13,310 bases of DNA, from assembly GCA_029856525.1 (NCBI GenBank), contig JAHQXC010000031.1:1-13310 (forward strand), in the 5' to 3' direction. The notes under the pieces were generated by a model. It did not search any database. It saw only the letters and a list, made by a program, of their open reading frames with translations, and was not told the DNA's origin. Origin of the DNA: Candidatus Odinarchaeia archaeon (lineage in GTDB: Archaea > Asgardarchaeota > Odinarchaeia > Odinarchaeales > Odinarchaeaceae). Every line of letters begins with the position of its first letter. Position 1 is the stretch's first letter. A program made the position numbers and the translations under genes. Positions 6,862 to 10,270 of this stretch are shown piece after piece.

Positions 6862-8250
6862 CTATTTTAAGAACAGTCTTGTTTCCCCGCTTTCAAATAT
6901 TTTAGTCGAGCTGATTTCAAGTATTAAAGGATAGTTTTTTGTTAATTCACCTGTTACAAGGCATCTTCTGAAAGGTAGAGATTTAACTATATAATTCAAT
7001 GTTTCACAGTCTAGATTCGCGGCGGGTGAGATGTATTCGATATCTCTTTTATCAACTAATTTAAACAGGAACAGATTATCCGCTTGTCTTATTATCATCT
7101 CAGGTAGGAATTGAGGGCTATTAGTTACATATATCTGATAGAGGCCTATATGTCTTATTCTACTAACTATGTCTTCTAGAGAGGCTTTAGGTATATAGAA
7201 ATGTGCTTCCTCGGCTATTAACCATACAGGGGGCTCCCCCTTCTCTAACATGTTCTGGAGTTTGCTGAGTATCGTTTGCACTGTGATTATTCTAGCTATT
7301 TGATCAGTTTTCTTAAGATTTACTATTAAAGCCCCTCCATTATTTATCTCATTTATTAATCGTTGGAGAACAGGCTCCTTTTCATCATCATTGAAGATTC
7401 CGGTTTCAACTATTTGCCGTATTCTCCTGTATAAGGCTTCTCTCACATAAGGATTATTCTCAGAGTTAACTGCTTTCACCAACTCCGTGATTTTAAGAGA
7501 GTTTTTTCTTTCAAGACTACTCCAAATATTTCTGAAAGCTATAGCGGATATCTCTGGTAGTCTAAGCGGGCCTGTTAACACATCGTAGATAACATCCATG
7601 CCGACATATTCTAGATTGAATTTCAGGTTTTCCCCCGGGTTAAGTCGAGTAATCCTCTCAACGTTTTCCCCTCTATCCCCTTCAATCTGAGCTGTTAAAC
7701 TACTATATTCATCGTTAATATCGAAAACAATCATTCTACAGCCTTTCTTAACCAATTCTTTTAAGATCAGCTTCGATAGATGGCTTTTACCACTGCCTTT
7801 TTTACCTATTATTAACGTGATCCCTTGAAAATAATATGCGTCGAAGACTATTCTTTCACGTTGAACGGTGTTACCTAGATAAACAGGATACTTTGGTTTA
7901 CCTCTTATATTTTCAAGAAGCCACTGTAATTTAATTTTCACAATTTCAGTTATATTCGCCGGGATCCATCCACTCCAATCTGATAGCTTAATCTTTTTAT
8001 TCTCTTTTTTAACCTCCATAAGTATTTTATATCTGAGACATCTCTCCCCGTAAGGTAGCTTCTTATAACTTATATTCTGATCCAGCTCCGGGTGCATATT
8101 CACTGTGAAATTAACTTCCACTAATTGAACTAATATACCTCGATTGTTTTTATCGAATAAAATGAAGTTTTCACCTATCTCCATGTCGCATTCTGCTTCG
8201 CTAAGTATTATTTCATCACCTTTTTTCGCTATTATCCGCATATTCTTCAC
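6862..8250 (-). CDS. HerA/DUF87-family (FtsK-HerA superfamily) ATPase
   Basis: N-terminal beta-rich HAS-barrel-like region, Walker A IIGKKGSGKSHL, IVFDINDEY, Walker B LIAEEAH, SRIRHIGL, and QADNLFLFKLVDKRDIEYI. The GTG start overlaps the upstream gene's stop (GTGA). Confidence 0.88.
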   Translation of the reverse strand: MKNMRIIAKKGDEIILSEAECDMEIGENFILFDKNNRGILVQLVEVNFTVNMHPELDQNISYKKLPYGERCLRYKILMEVKKENKKIKLSDWSGWIPANITEIVKIKLQWLLENIRGKPKYPVYLGNTVQRERIVFDAYYFQGITLIIGKKGSGKSHLSKLILKELVKKGCRMIVFDINDEYSSLTAQIEGDRGENVERITRLNPGENLKFNLEYVGMDVIYDVLTGPLRLPEISAIAFRNIWSSLERKNSLKITELVKAVNSENNPYVREALYRRIRQIVETGIFNDDEKEPVLQRLINEINNGGALIVNLKKTDQIARIITVQTILSKLQNMLEKGEPPVWLIAEEAHFYIPKASLEDIVSRIRHIGLYQIYVTNSPQFLPEMIIRQADNLFLFKLVDKRDIEYISPAANLDCETLNYIVKSLPFRRCLVTGELTKNYPLILEISSTKIFESGETRLFLK

Positions 8251-9110
8251 ATTTTTAAATTAAATTTATCAGCTGAAAGCTGTGTTATAACAAGATCGTG
8301 AACGTATATCGCTTTAAATACTCTCTTATGAGCTTTTATATGCCCGTATATTAAAAAATCAGCTCCATAGCTTCTAAGCAATATATTTAAAGCCGTATCA
8401 AAAGACTTATAATTTTTACCTATAAAATCAGGGTTTTTCCGCTTTAAAATATATGTTAAATTGCAAGGAGCACCGCCCACAGGGAGATTCCACCGAGTTT
8501 TCACATATTTGAAGGTTTTAATAACCTCCGCTAGCGAGTTGATATCAGTTATAGCGCAGTCTACGATCATATTAATTATACTCGAATCTTTCAACTTCTC
8601 AAGTATCCTCTCTAATATTTTAATCCGTCCCTCTGCACTCGCATCCTGTGGGTTAAATATTTGTATTATAGCATTTTGAACACCGTATCTGGTAATGTTT
8701 TTTAATAAATCTTCTGTTAGACTATAATTGTTAACAGAGTTTATAACTAATCGCTCGACGACGCCTATTCGAAAAGCTGCTTTAATCGCAGACTCTAAAA
8801 TATGCGGGGACCCGCTGTCAAAAATAAAAGGATTATTATTAACAGACGTTAATATTTGAATACACTTGTCTATATCTTTCTCTCTTTCAACTATTACATC
8901 ATAGAAATGTCTTATACCTAGTTTCTTAGCCTCTTCTTCTACTTCAAGTATCTTACTGTGGAGTGTATTATTTTCGAGACTGCTGCTTGTAAGCTGAGAG
9001 GAGTAAACGCTACCTATGAGAAGAGTGTTCGCTTCTAAGCTACTGAAGCTATTTATATTAATCCTCTCCTAATAGCCTATCCTTCTCTCTGAGTAACTAT
9101 AAAATTTCAT
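8247..9110 (-). CDS. MtrH-family (methyltetrahydromethanopterin/THF:corrinoid methyltransferase-like, pterin-binding TIM barrel) protein with in-frame UAG at codon 14 or non-canonical start
   Basis: The frame of the listed 8247-8594 ORF is open from 9068, with no ATG/GTG/TTG for 158 codons. It reads ...NTLLIGSVY...PFIFDSG...RLVINSVN...NMIVDCAI...WNLPVGGAPCN...GADFLIYG, matching MtrH motifs (PTVLxGSIFY, PFLxDS, RxIYNSIN, LID, GxPxGxxxHN, GADFxLYG). An in-frame ATG at 9110 (MKFYSY...) is separated from it by TAG at 9071-9069. Confidence 0.78.
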
Positions 9111-9120
9111 CCCGGCCTAT

Positions 9121-9180
9121 CGGTCATTGAATATTCTCGTCATCGAGTTTCAGGGGCTAATTTTGTAAACGCTCATCGAA
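9121..9180 (-). ncRNA. Candidate C/D-box sRNA or K-turn-containing 5' leader
   Basis: The minus strand reads TCGATGA-19nt-CTGA-AAC-TCGATGA-12nt-ATGA, i.e. C, D', C', D-like boxes in the canonical order over about 56 nt. The C/C' boxes and the D box deviate from the consensus RUGAUGA/CUGA. Confidence 0.35.
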
Positions 9181-9223
9181 TATAAAAGTTATTATCCAAT
9201 AAATTAGTAACTAAGAACGCTGG

Positions 9224-9237
9224 CTATAAATTTTTAT
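9224..9237. promoter_or_regulatory. Near-palindromic TATA element, possible divergent promoter for hisG (+) and the MtrH-like operon (-)
   Basis: CTATAAATTTTTAT reads as a TATA-like box on both strands and lies in the gap between the divergent genes. Confidence 0.35.
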
Positions 9238-9298
9238 TGTTGTTATGATAAGTTAACTACTGACATCAGCTGGATGGATAATATTAGAGGTAGCTTAA

Positions 9299-10270
9299 AT
9301 GAATATATTAAAAATAGCTTTACCGAAAGGCTCTCTATTAGATGCAACTCTAGAATTGTTTAAACAAGCCGGTTACGAAATAAAAGCCTCTGATCGTTCA
9401 TATAGACCTTGGATTAACGATCCAGAGATTTCGCTTAAACTTCTCCGCCCTCAAGAAATACCAAGACTTGTAGAGCAAGGTACCTATGATTTAGGTATAT
9501 CAGGTTTAGACTGGATAAATGAAACAATGTCGAATGTTGTTAAAATAGCGAATCTTGAATACGGACTCGTGCGTATAATTTTAGCTGTCCCAGCGAATTG
9601 GAGTGAAATCCAATCTCTATCAGATTTAATAGAATACTGCTATAAGCAGAATAAACCTTTACGCATCTCTACAGAGTATATTAACTCAGCTAAAAATTAT
9701 TTAATGCAGAATCCGCTTTACAAAAAACTTTACGGTGAAGCTGAGCCTGAAGTTATAACACCATGGTATAAGTTTGGGAGTAATCCTAATGTGAGAATAA
9801 TATTATCTTTCGGCGCGACTGAAGCTAAACCTCCAGATGAAGCTGAAGCTATTATCGATAATACGGAAACAGGCACAACTATTCAAAGCAATAATTTAAA
9901 GATTATTGAAACTCTCTCTACTTCCAGCGCCCTGTTAGTGGCTTCCGAGAATGCTATGAATGATTCATGGAAGAAAGAGAAAATTATGGATGTAGCTATG
10001 TTACTTAAAAGCGTAGTCAACGCTAGAGGTAAAATTCATATTTTCGTGAATGTTCAAGAGAAAAATCTGCCTAAACTTATGGAGAAGCTCCCAGCTTTGA
10101 AAAAACCCACGATATCTAAGCTCGCGGGTACAGATGACTGGTATTCTTTAAATACAATCATCCCTAAAGAATATTTTATATCAATAGTTCCATTGCTTAG
10201 AAAATACGCGCAGGGTTTAGTAGTCCACGTGCCAAGGCAGGTGCTACCTTTAGAAGGGTTTAACGAATAA
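9299..10270 (+). CDS. hisG: ATP phosphoribosyltransferase, long form
   Basis: KIALPKGSL, LRPQEIP, DLGISGLDWINE, SFGATEA and AIIDNTETGTT motifs, plus a C-terminal regulatory domain (LPALKKPTISKL). RBS GAGG. Confidence 0.97.
   Translation: MNILKIALPKGSLLDATLELFKQAGYEIKASDRSYRPWINDPEISLKLLRPQEIPRLVEQGTYDLGISGLDWINETMSNVVKIANLEYGLVRIILAVPANWSEIQSLSDLIEYCYKQNKPLRISTEYINSAKNYLMQNPLYKKLYGEAEPEVITPWYKFGSNPNVRIILSFGATEAKPPDEAEAIIDNTETGTTIQSNNLKIIETLSTSSALLVASENAMNDSWKKEKIMDVAMLLKSVVNARGKIHIFVNVQEKNLPKLMEKLPALKKPTISKLAGTDDWYSLNTIIPKEYFISIVPLLRKYAQGLVVHVPRQVLPLEGFNE

Follow-up and report, generated by a model that had tools for sequence, protein, structure and literature searches.

A conserved, putative box C/D sRNA and a probable AUA start codon at the front of an mtrH-like gene in Odinarchaeia

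The stretch of DNA analysed here (the window, 13,310 nucleotides from a Candidatus Odinarchaeia archaeon) carries on its minus strand an mtrH-like gene that lies between a divergent hisG and the gene for a HerA/DUF87-type ATPase (6862-8250, minus strand), whose GTG start overlaps the TGA of the mtrH-like gene in the tetranucleotide GTGA; the order mtrH-like/HerA is also found in L004, L006 and L007. The frame of the mtrH-like gene is open from 9068 to 8250, up to a TGA at 8249-8247 (273 codons), and the 158 codons at its front are free of ATG, GTG and TTG, a stretch that is the second longest of its kind among the ORFs of the window's genome that span 200 codons or more from stop to stop (806 in all); the output of an ORF lister was confined to the final 115 codons, from TTG 8594. 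Further upstream on the same strand, an ATG at 9110 opens 13 codons that run into a TAG (9071-9069), which overlaps a Shine-Dalgarno (SD) motif, AGGAGAGG (9070-9063), and this is followed by an ATT at 9062 and an ATA at 9056. All these features were found on re-reading just as the original prediction had them when it proposed one full-length gene, either interrupted by an in-frame amber codon or begun at ATA or ATT, and its remark that Lrp, phoU and HerA in the window end in TAG holds as well: the genome uses TAG as a normal stop, at the end of 162 of the 806 long ORFs (20%), these three included.

The mtrH-like coding sequence (8247-9056, minus strand; 269 codons plus TGA) yields a product that matches the Pfam MtrH family PF02007 over profile positions 56-292 of 299 (E 2.5e-28; 99.5 bits, against a cut-off of 22.8) and the MtrH chain 8z9u_B of the PDB (E 5e-21), so the family assignment made from motifs alone was sound. 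With the corrinoid:pterin methyltransferases MtrH and MtgA (PF02007; 8z9u, 9qtp, 6sj8) it shares the TIM-barrel match and a conserved Asp/Asn/Asp/Asn set in DS, NS, VDC and PCN motifs; these residues, D80, N106, D166 and N199, are invariant in a seven-sequence alignment, align with the D/N/D/N of 8z9u_B and may serve in pterin binding. The differences are that it scores far under both the equivalog cut-off of TIGR01114 (90.6 versus 271.4 bits) and the subfamily cut-off of PRK00979 (139.7 versus 287 bits), that its gene is paired with one for a HerA-like ATPase, with no mtrA-G or corrinoid-protein gene found nearby, and that it lacks the N-terminal hairpin of canonical MtrH (..F-x-I-x-G-x-K-I-G-G.., before beta-1). 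Judged by these scores, the product is a divergent paralogue and not subunit H of the Mtr complex. The hairpin occurs in the proteins of L007 and genus g2, but none of the four proteins of the window's genus has it, these being without some 15-17 N-terminal residues of canonical MtrH; the argument that an ATG-started product would have the expected N-terminal length finds no support in this genus-level shortening. The gene nevertheless looks intact, as had been proposed, with neither frameshifts nor internal stops and a dN/dS of 0.12-0.20 at dS of about 1 or more. An AlphaFold2 model (pTM 0.71, mean pLDDT 67.6) has alternating beta and alpha elements, the first strand being formed by residues 12-18 and residues 1-11 being disordered.

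The leader in front of this gene, about 75 nt long, shows a mean column identity of about 92% across five Odinarchaeia sequences, in which the mtrH-like proteins are 49-74% identical to that of the window and the adjacent coding sequences have a dS of at least 1; within its 13 'codons', third positions vary no more than first and second ones. Read as RNA, it has the layout of a box C/D sRNA (9085-9147, minus strand) in the order C-D'-C'-D, closed by a terminal stem of CUC (9147-9145) and GAG (9087-9085) and with tandem G.A pairs in both K-turn motifs. The C box, AUGACGA (9143-9137; consensus RUGAUGA), lies on the bulged strand of the terminal K-turn and is invariant in the genus; after it come a D' spacer of 9 nt (9136-9128), a D'-like box AUGA (9127-9124) and an internal stem-loop, CCG/CGG (9123-9112), which closes the C'/D' K-turn and whose stem is kept while its loop varies. 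Then follow a C'-like box, AUGAAAU (9110-9104), which contains the ATG at 9110, the 12-nt D guide UUUAUAGUUACU (9103-9092) and the D box, CAGA (9091-9088; consensus CUGA). The boxes are off consensus, the C box matching it at six of seven positions and the D box at three of four, and the two aberrant bases, A in the D box and C in the C box, face each other; a canonical CUGA is found in the G040 homologue. The D' spacer differs in sequence between species and in length too, being 10 nt in L007 and 12-13 nt in g2, g12 and G040.

Homologues of this element are widespread, a covariance model (R1) detecting it in 30 of 151 Asgard genomes, and none of the 21 aligned homologues departs from the GAUGA core of the C' region. 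The alignment has 95% of its cells paired, a share that drops to 22-51% once the partner columns are slid, and compensatory changes affect five of ten pairs, in the terminal stem, stem II and the internal stem, with the qualification that they represent few clade-level events and that the alignment was fitted to the model. The stem II pairs beside the tandem G.A covary from one clade to another (G-C with A-U, A-U with G-C), and the internal stem of genus g2 shows a compensatory change from G-C to A-U, that of g12 a fourth pair. Genus g12 also has stand-alone copies of the sRNA with no gene downstream, which appear to show that its ancestral role was that of a guide RNA. The genome encodes fibrillarin, Nop5 and L7Ae, and a strict C/D pattern scan of it returned one canonical sRNA. 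A permissive Rfam scan of 8950-9300 gave nothing near the gathering score, only weak look-alikes of C/D snoRNAs; an nhmmer search of the window's genome with the leader detected no second copy; and exact-pattern scans matched Odinarchaeota only in the genome collection and only high-GC coding DNA, by chance, in the metagenome collection. An alternative fold from RNAalifold and single-sequence prediction, in which the C-box region pairs with the guide, was rejected in favour of the K-turn model (no covariation, z-score -0.8). On this comparative evidence, the stretch from ATG to TAG is best described as non-coding and as consisting of the C' box, the 12-nt guide and the D box of a box C/D sRNA, which likewise lends no support to the expected-length argument for an ATG-started product.

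The D guide is complementary to the loop of 23S helix 69 over 11 contiguous Watson-Crick pairs, its target being AGUAACUAUAAC at G000:C11:17934-17945(-), LSU rRNA positions 2019-2030; an 11-bp match was reached by one of 5000 shuffled guides. The fifth pair from the D box holds the A equivalent to Escherichia coli A1913, and the sRNA is thus predicted to direct 2'-O-methylation at LSU A2023, the site of Am2256 in yeast (E. coli 1915 is the counterpart of yeast Psi2258 (PMC2794176), which makes A1913 that of Am2256). In hyperthermophilic archaea, helix 69 is known to be a hotspot of methylation (PMC4644070). In the G040 homologue the D guide pairs with helix 69 of its own genome and the D' guide with 23S rRNA about 30 nt downstream, and in other Asgard clades the equivalent 12-13-nt D' spacer is complementary to 23S rRNA some 25-35 nt downstream of helix 69; the D' spacer of the window's genus gave no convincing target in rRNA. 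An exact search for the complement of the guide gave total counts equal to those of the control, the rRNA match being recognised through rRNA coordinates, and in other assemblies the helix-69 pattern had a 23S match in G040 only. A genome-wide scan for 10-mer guides beside C[TA]GA and a C-like box gave similar counts with real and reversed rRNA (4 versus 3); for this reason the helix-69 match has no more than the weight of one single test on a candidate chosen in advance. The element resembles archaeal helix-69 box C/D sRNAs (Dennis et al., 2015, PMC4644070; Lui et al., 2018, PMC6009581) and yeast snR63 (PMC2794176) in its length of about 56 nt, its C-D'-C'-D order with two K-turns, its 12-nt guide beside the D box and its target in the helix-69 loop, where the predicted nucleotide is the position methylated through snR63 in yeast, and the copies in other Asgard clades are dual guides whose two sites are separated by about 25-35 nt within one domain. 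It differs from them in its non-consensus boxes (AUGACGA, CAGA), in a D' half of 9 nt without a target, in belonging to no Rfam family, its likeness to snR63/SNORD46 being one of target, and in its position, 16 nt before the ATG of the mtrH gene in L007 and 29 nt before the AUA in the window. This closeness, in the genus as in L007, suggests that the sRNA probably forms the 5' leader of the protein gene.

Where the mtrH-like gene begins is most likely at the ATA at 9056 (9056-9054, minus strand), to judge from its conservation and its distance from the SD motif. That motif, AGGAGAGG, faces a 16S 3' end of GGAUCACCUCCU, and the aligned spacing from it to the ATA is 8 nt, where the genome mode is 7-10 nt. 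Between the stop and beta-1, apart from the ATA, no near-cognate codon in frame is shared by all four species of the genus, and synonymous changes (AAT/AAC, TTC/TTT) begin directly after the ATA. The non-canonical start that the original prediction had listed as an option is thereby favoured in its ATA form and not in its ATT form: in place of the ATT at 9062 two species have GTT and AAT, and this codon is only 2 nt away from the SD-aligned position. L007, a more distant relative, starts its mtrH gene at an ATG of its own, 16 nt after the D-box region. Two other genes of the genome point the same way. A TupA-like gene (C112) has ATA at the exact codon where G001 has GTG, and the ATG of its orthologues in G005 and G006 is about equally far ahead of the membrane anchor. 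In a NuoL-like gene (C54), an ATA lies one or two codons at most from the point where the orthologues start with GTG or ATG. In a crude genome-wide test, AUH triplets behind SD motifs were not in significant excess (22 of 402 were ATA, against a background of 5.3%), and a second, equally crude test of AUA, AUU and AUC behind SD motifs was likewise non-significant (Fisher p = 0.2); support for AUA starts therefore comes case by case, the automatic start picker being too crude for a genome-wide count of AUH starts.

Rare starts other than AUG, GUG and UUG have bacterial precedents, such as the AUU starts of infC and pcnB in E. coli. AUU and AUA have been studied in vitro as initiation triplets (PMC5499595), and a literature search returned no published report of AUA starts in Asgard or other archaea. 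Like the bacterial examples, the case described here has a near-cognate AUH codon, a good SD motif, normal spacing and conservation in relatives; it differs from them in concerning an Asgard archaeon in which several unrelated genes are alike, and in that, from one sister species to another, the codon is exchanged for ATG or GTG. We infer that the initiator tRNA reads the AUA at 9056.

Taken together, conservation, covariation, the guide-target match, purifying selection and the conservation and spacing of the AUA make it probable that two genes lie here in a row, a box C/D sRNA and then an AUA-started mtrH-like gene, and that they are not one interrupted gene. The sRNA, 56-63 nt long (about 9147-9085), would be transcribed, probably, from the TATA-like box TTTTATAT (9187-9180, minus strand), which was recognised by eye about 32 nt upstream of the terminal stem; A/T boxes stand at the equivalent distance in relatives and in the stand-alone g12 copies, and the box presumably serves as promoter for a transcript comprising both the sRNA and the mtrH-like mRNA, which we infer to be co-transcribed. 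The C/D and C'/D' boxes would fold into two K-turns on which L7Ae, Nop5 and fibrillarin assemble, and the D guide, paired with the helix-69 loop, would place a 2'-O-methyl group on the A1913 equivalent. The C' box, guide and D box happen to read as the codons of 'MKFYSYSERR', and the TAG after them would be a stop triplet in a non-coding RNA. The mtrH-like gene would begin 29 nt past the 3' strand of the terminal stem, where the SD motif places the start at AUA 9056, giving a 269-aa protein without the canonical N-terminal hairpin, presumably expressed at a low level, and the HerA-like gene would follow through the stop/start overlap. A bolder extension, that initiation at AUA (and at AUU, AUC and CUG) is regular in Candidatus Odinarchaeum, with ATG/GTG-ATA swaps, and that the transcript of the mtrH-like/herA operon carries at its 5' end a working helix-69 guide sRNP whose assembly or processing gates translation of the weak-start gene behind it, is conceivable, though we hold it doubtful.

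One other reading is that the leader acts mainly as a K-turn switch, bound by L7Ae, on translation of the mtrH-like and herA genes, its guide role being secondary or lost in the genus. It has a precedent in the 5' UTR K-turns that mask the SD motif and repress translation in Sulfolobus (PMC5539422), and it would suit both the degenerate D' half in the genus and L007, where the 3' strand of the terminal stem lies inside the purine run that serves as SD of the ATG. The K-turn of the Sulfolobus l7ae 5' UTR (PMC5539422) shares with ours the GAU bulge, the tandem G.A and a short stem beside the SD, whereas our K-turns are part of a complete guide RNA with an rRNA target and the working SD of the window's genus (9070-9063) is outside the structure. 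A pure switch would need neither an invariant 12-nt guide nor its perfect pairing with helix 69, and the stand-alone copies speak for guiding as the older function; we consider a predominantly regulatory leader unlikely, and the two roles are in any case compatible with each other.

It is also rather improbable that translation starts elsewhere, at the ATT at 9062, at another nearby non-AUG triplet or at the TTG at 8594. In favour of this, G004 and L005 have an in-frame ATG six codons past the ATA, where translation could begin, and public gene calls use various downstream starts; against it, the ATT, besides being replaced in two species, is 2 nt from the SD-aligned position, where the genome mode is 7-10 nt, and purifying selection and MtrH homology span all 269 codons. 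A start at TTG 8594 would leave 115 residues, which by the structural model lack five of the eight barrel strands. Still less credence can be given to the 13-codon ORF as a translated uORF whose termination at TAG or TGA would allow re-initiation at the AUA and thereby make a weak start tolerable. This ORF is kept intact across the genus and its stop, overlapping the SD, comes 12 nt before the ATA, but no SD precedes the ATG at 9110, which is itself the bulge and part of the tandem G.A of a K-turn that L7Ae should occupy; conservation is equal upstream of that ATG, the stand-alone RNA copies of g12 have no gene downstream, and the AUA-started C112 and C54 have no such uORF.

A pseudogene in decay, or an assembly error at the TAG, would fit the loss of a canonical start and N-terminal hairpin relative to L007 and genus g2, but is very improbable given that the stop and the missing start are common to four independent genomes, one of them closed, which equally disposes of the suggested recent nonsense mutation, and that the low dN/dS, the undisturbed frame and the D/N/D/N positions are those of a conserved gene. 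A TAG in frame and close to the beginning of a gene from a methyltransferase family recalls the pyrrolysine UAG of methanogen methylamine methyltransferases; the window differs in that its genome showed no Pyl machinery, that its stop is not conserved as TAG and that its upstream 'codons' belong to an RNA gene. The search for that machinery left PylS and PylB below cut-off (best profile matches 39.9 versus 178 bits and 43.5 versus 348 bits) and found no tRNA-CUA among the only 20 tRNAs detected. Read-through of the TAG from ATG 9110, by pyrrolysine or a suppressor, into a 287-aa protein is accordingly scarcely credible, for although the ATG is in frame with the coding sequence, with one stop between them, in all four species of the genus, these cases are not independent because the leaders are near-identical and without indels, L006/G005 have TGA as the stop where three other sequences have TAG, L007 has the ATG in another frame than the gene, TAG is a common stop, and the 13 codons, which make up boxes and guide of an sRNA, do not vary at any of their three positions.

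If a box C/D sRNA followed by an AUA-started gene is the right description, a widely conserved guide RNA is added to the Asgard repertoire, with a predicted target in the helix-69 adenosine that is methylated in eukaryotes, and an rRNA modification shared between archaea and eukaryotes becomes directly testable. Conserved AUA starts in Asgard archaea would bear on the start-codon stringency of archaeal initiation, which is eukaryote-like in its factors. The locus would also illustrate that an ATG with an in-frame stop, before a gene seemingly without a start, can be an RNA gene and not a case of recoding. Gene finders restricted to ATG, GTG and TTG will go on missing the beginning of the mtrH-like gene, and several other genes, in these genomes: all the public calls of the mtrH-like gene that were found in the genus are too short (200, 229 and 263 aa, against 265-269), and in the closed reference genome the gene is called from an internal ATT.

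The mtrH-like gene has the layout described in the original prediction: an ATG at 9110 (-) is the first of 13 codons (MKFYSYSERRIGY) that run up to a TAG at 9071-9069, after which the same frame is open again from 9068 to a TGA at 8249-8247 (-). The first ATG, GTG or TTG in this frame after the TAG is TTG 8594, so that the ORF listing gives only 115 codons, and the start-less 5′ part, 158 codons long, is the second-longest when the genome's 806 stop-to-stop ORFs with 200 codons or more are compared. The proposed MtrH family membership is confirmed by matches to Pfam PF02007 (E 2.5e-28, profile positions 56-292) and to PDB MtrH chains (E 5e-21 to 1e-13), as is the view that the gene is not decayed: dN/dS of the coding sequence is 0.12-0.20 over four species of the genus, frameshifts are absent and the candidate pterin-binding D/N/D/N positions are kept, and hence the gene must be translated. 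Judged by its sequence, the product belongs to the MtrH-like pterin-binding barrels as a divergent member and is distinct from subunit H of the Mtr complex: its scores fall well short of the NCBIfam cut-offs for MtrH proper (the equivalog) and its named subfamily, mtr neighbours are absent, and the N-terminal hairpin is missing. As a best guess, it binds methyl-pterin or transfers methyl groups, working with the HerA/DUF87 ATPase, whose GTG start overlaps the mtrH-like TGA (GTGA, 8247-8250 (-)).

The window is contig C41 of an assembly of 1.32 Mb (93% complete), and the closest named protein to the mtrH-like product is from Candidatus Odinarchaeum yellowstonii LCB_4. Of the seven genomes that sample the class, three fall in genus g2 and four in that of the window (G000, the window's own; G004; G005; and G006, which is the closed LCB_4 chromosome); a more distant orthologue, 49-51% identical in two alignments, is carried by the metagenome contig L007. 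Common to all loci with flanks is a hisG gene divergent from the mtrH-like gene, which is followed by the HerA-like gene, and in all relatives with flanks this pair adjoins a divergent hisG-hisD-hisC cluster. Public calls for the mtrH-like gene in the genus are all too short (P0003, P0004 and P0005, at L005:205, L006:626 and L004:3001, with 263, 229 and 200 aa, respectively), and that on the closed LCB_4 chromosome takes an internal ATT as the start, translated as Met.

Amber recoding is the wrong reading of this gene. With five distinct sequences lined up, the upstream DNA (about 9165-9079) is almost invariant, at 92% mean column identity, and in the adjacent coding sequence synonymous sites are near saturation (dS about 1 or more). 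Three observations exclude a coding role for the DNA between ATG 9110 and the TAG: its “codon” positions 1-3 are equally conserved, in a block that runs about 40 nt further upstream of the ATG; in L007 the upstream ATG is out of frame with the gene, whose own ATG lies 16 nt after the conserved block and whose canonical N-terminus is complete; and the stop after 13 codons, TAG in three relatives, is TGA in G005 (locus L006). Read-through by pyrrolysine or suppression, which would join the 13 codons to the open frame, is rejected on the TGA, on the failure of profile searches to find PylS or PylB above cut-off and of a search for a tRNA with anticodon CUA in this genome, and on the use of TAG as a common stop (it ends 20% of long ORFs, as fits the earlier doubt about genome-wide amber recoding). 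A sequencing error at 9071-9069 is rejected because the stop is common to four genomes.

The other option put forward, a non-canonical start at ATA 9056 or ATT 9062, stands for the former codon and falls for the latter. ATT 9062 is GTT in LCB_4 and AAT in G005 and lies 2 nt from the position aligned to the Shine-Dalgarno (SD) sequence; ATA 9056 lies 8 nt from it, and the distance from the GGAGG equivalent to the start peaks at 7-10 nt among 225 SD-led canonical starts of this genome, in which the 16S rRNA has the 3′ end GGAUCACCUCCU. ATA 9056 is also the only near-cognate in-frame codon that the four species share past the stop and ahead of the first barrel strand (TLLIG); synonymous differences (AAT/AAC, TTC/TTT) set in directly past it, and the length difference among species between stop and strand is a multiple of three. 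These comparisons point to ATA 9056 as the most likely start. The resulting product has 269 aa (265-269 aa in relatives), and its AlphaFold2 model, from a shallow alignment (pTM 0.71, mean pLDDT 67.6), alternates beta and alpha elements after a disordered head of 11 residues, the first strand spanning residues 12-18. G004 (locus L005) has an extra ATG six codons past the ATA, with the SD positioned for the ATA.

In the window's genus the N-terminus is about 15-17 residues shorter than in L007 and g2. The L007 start (ATG, L007:3001-3003) aligns with ATT 9073-9071 (-) in the window and with TCT or GTT in other species, and the old L007-type frame is closed by a TAA in the window, which suggests that the AUA was recruited after the original start and the N-terminal hairpin had been lost in the ancestor of the genus. 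Over the 269-codon gene (8250-9056 (-)), ATG, GTG and TTG are absent from the first 154 codons; the genus orthologues are also very Met-poor, against five Met in the L007 orthologue with its ATG start, and this scarcity could stem from selection that disfavours internal starts where a gene's own start is weak.

The upstream ATG is, as read from conserved sequence, part of a box C/D guide RNA of typical form that had not been filed before, and the peptide “MKFYSYSERR”, formerly taken as the MtrH N-terminus, can with high confidence be read as its C′ box, guide and D box. By eye, the conserved block holds two K-turn consensus motifs arranged like an archaeal box C/D sRNA, and the box model was fixed before its tests were run. 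All on the minus strand, its terminal stem (CUC, 9147-9145; GAG, 9087-9085) encloses a C box (AUGACGA, 9143-9137), a 9-nt D′ spacer (9136-9128), a D′-like box (AUGA, 9127-9124), an internal stem-loop (CCG/CGG, 9123-9112), a C′-like box (AUGAAAU, 9110-9104), an invariant 12-nt D guide (9103-9092) and a D box (CAGA, 9091-9088). The D′ half is degenerate in the window's genus, where its 9-nt spacer is variable and no rRNA target for it was found, and no Rfam family matches the sRNA. A second TCGATGAG at 9172-9179 (-), between the TATA box and the sRNA, is probably outside the latter, as it is not conserved in LCB_4, L006 or L007.

From the D box, the D guide forms 11 contiguous Watson-Crick pairs with the helix 69 loop of the genome's own 23S rRNA (LSU 2019-2029), a match found also in G004 and G006 and a length reached anywhere in 16S plus 23S by 1/5000 shuffled guides. 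Since box C/D methylation as a rule falls on the fifth pair from box D, the predicted target is the second A of GUAAC, equivalent to E. coli A1913. The yeast equivalents of E. coli 1915 and 1917 are Psi2258 and Psi2260; yeast Am2256, which is guided by snR63 and conserved in humans (PMC2794176), is therefore the same position as A1913, and the sRNA is predicted to target a helix-69 nucleotide whose methylation is conserved in eukaryotes. In hyperthermophilic archaea, a methylation hotspot is predicted in helix 69 around A1912 (PMC4644070). Genes for fibrillarin, Nop5 and L7Ae are present in this genome.

Of 151 Asgard genomes sampled, 30 have the sRNA according to a covariance model built from the five sequences (every genome of the window's genus, 2/3 in g2, 14/15 in genus g12 and 6/6 in genus g25). 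In a 21-sequence alignment, compensatory changes occur in the terminal stem, the internal stem and the stem beside the tandem G.A; pairing holds in 95% of cells, versus 22-51% with partner columns slid, and 5/10 pairs change on both sides. As few clade-level events in a model-fitted alignment, this covariation supports the sRNA model and is not statistical proof. The homologue in the complete genome G040 has a canonical CUGA D box, a D guide that pairs with its own helix 69, and a D′ guide complementary to 23S about 30 nt downstream of that target; in g12 the D′ guide has its complement in CAAAUGCCUU, which lies 26 nt downstream of the helix-69 target, as in the typical dual-guide arrangement (PMC6009581). 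The window's genome also has a fully canonical box C/D sRNA at C11:5559-5615 (-) (ATGATGA ... CTGA ... ATGAGGA ... CTGA) and a second candidate at C8 ~15665-15730 (+), with GTGATGA, a CAGA D box and a 10-nt guide matching 16S near 1495.

Placement of the sRNA varies. In g12 it stands alone, has an A/T box of its own and is not followed by an ORF, and in g2 some 110 nt separate it from the downstream ATG of a canonical MtrH-family gene; in L007 the gene ATG is 16 nt past the D-box region, and a purine run that takes in the 3′ strand of the terminal stem, just past the D box, serves as the SD; in the window's genus the stem-to-AUA gap is 29 nt. A TATA-like box at 9187-9180 (-), about 32 nt before the terminal stem, and the lack of room for a second promoter make co-transcription of the sRNA with the mtrH-like/herA mRNA likely. 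Co-transcription or overlap of C/D sRNAs with protein genes is known (PMC6009581), and K-turns in 5′ leaders can repress translation via L7Ae (PMC5539422), so a regulatory side-role of the sRNA as a K-turn leader, instead of or on top of the guide role, is possible. Nothing in the predicted guide RNA and start is categorically new; the unusual variant lies in their combination, a conserved AUA start behind a guide RNA that probably forms the mRNA leader.

Two further start-less genes with probable AUA starts were compared with their orthologues in this genome's relatives. A TupA-like gene (C112:2326-3282 (+); L037:327-1283) lacks ATG, GTG and TTG for 190 codons and has an ATA start directly past a stop, 8 nt after a perfect GAGGUGAUC; G004 likewise has ATA, the exactly aligned codon of G001 is GTG, and in the G005 and G006 orthologues an ATG precedes the membrane anchor by a similar distance. 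A NuoL/Mrp-like membrane-subunit gene (C54:3260-5260 (+); L038:261-2261) is without a canonical start for 154 codons and has ATA ATA 10 nt after GAGGUG, and its orthologues start with ATG (G006) or GTG (G005) one or two codons from the ATA position. Two crude tests for genome-wide enrichment of non-canonical starts in this genome were not significant, and we therefore claim recurrence of AUA starts case by case, not a quantified genome-wide rule. Nine more candidates picked by eye (C82:14325 (+), C3:4523 (-), C111:21691 (-), C80:10184 (-), C80:8703 (-), C29:6310 (+), C14:41603 (-), C121:696 (+) and C47:12199 (-)) have conserved-looking N-termini upstream of any canonical start and a good SD 5-9 nt before ATT, ATC, ATA or CTG, among them a CinA-like ATT, a signal-peptide protein ATC and a HisH-like CTG. 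SD-led canonical starts in this genome include threefold more TTG than GTG (64 vs 21); near ORF 5′ ends a preceding SD is no commoner for GTG than for interior codons, whereas for ATG and TTG the enrichment is about sixfold. This genome also holds another MtrH paralogue, more canonical and split over two contig ends (C45:1-90 (-) and C32:5-505 (+)), which starts MIKFSIPQRIFEIGGVKVGG... with an ordinary ATG and without an sRNA leader.
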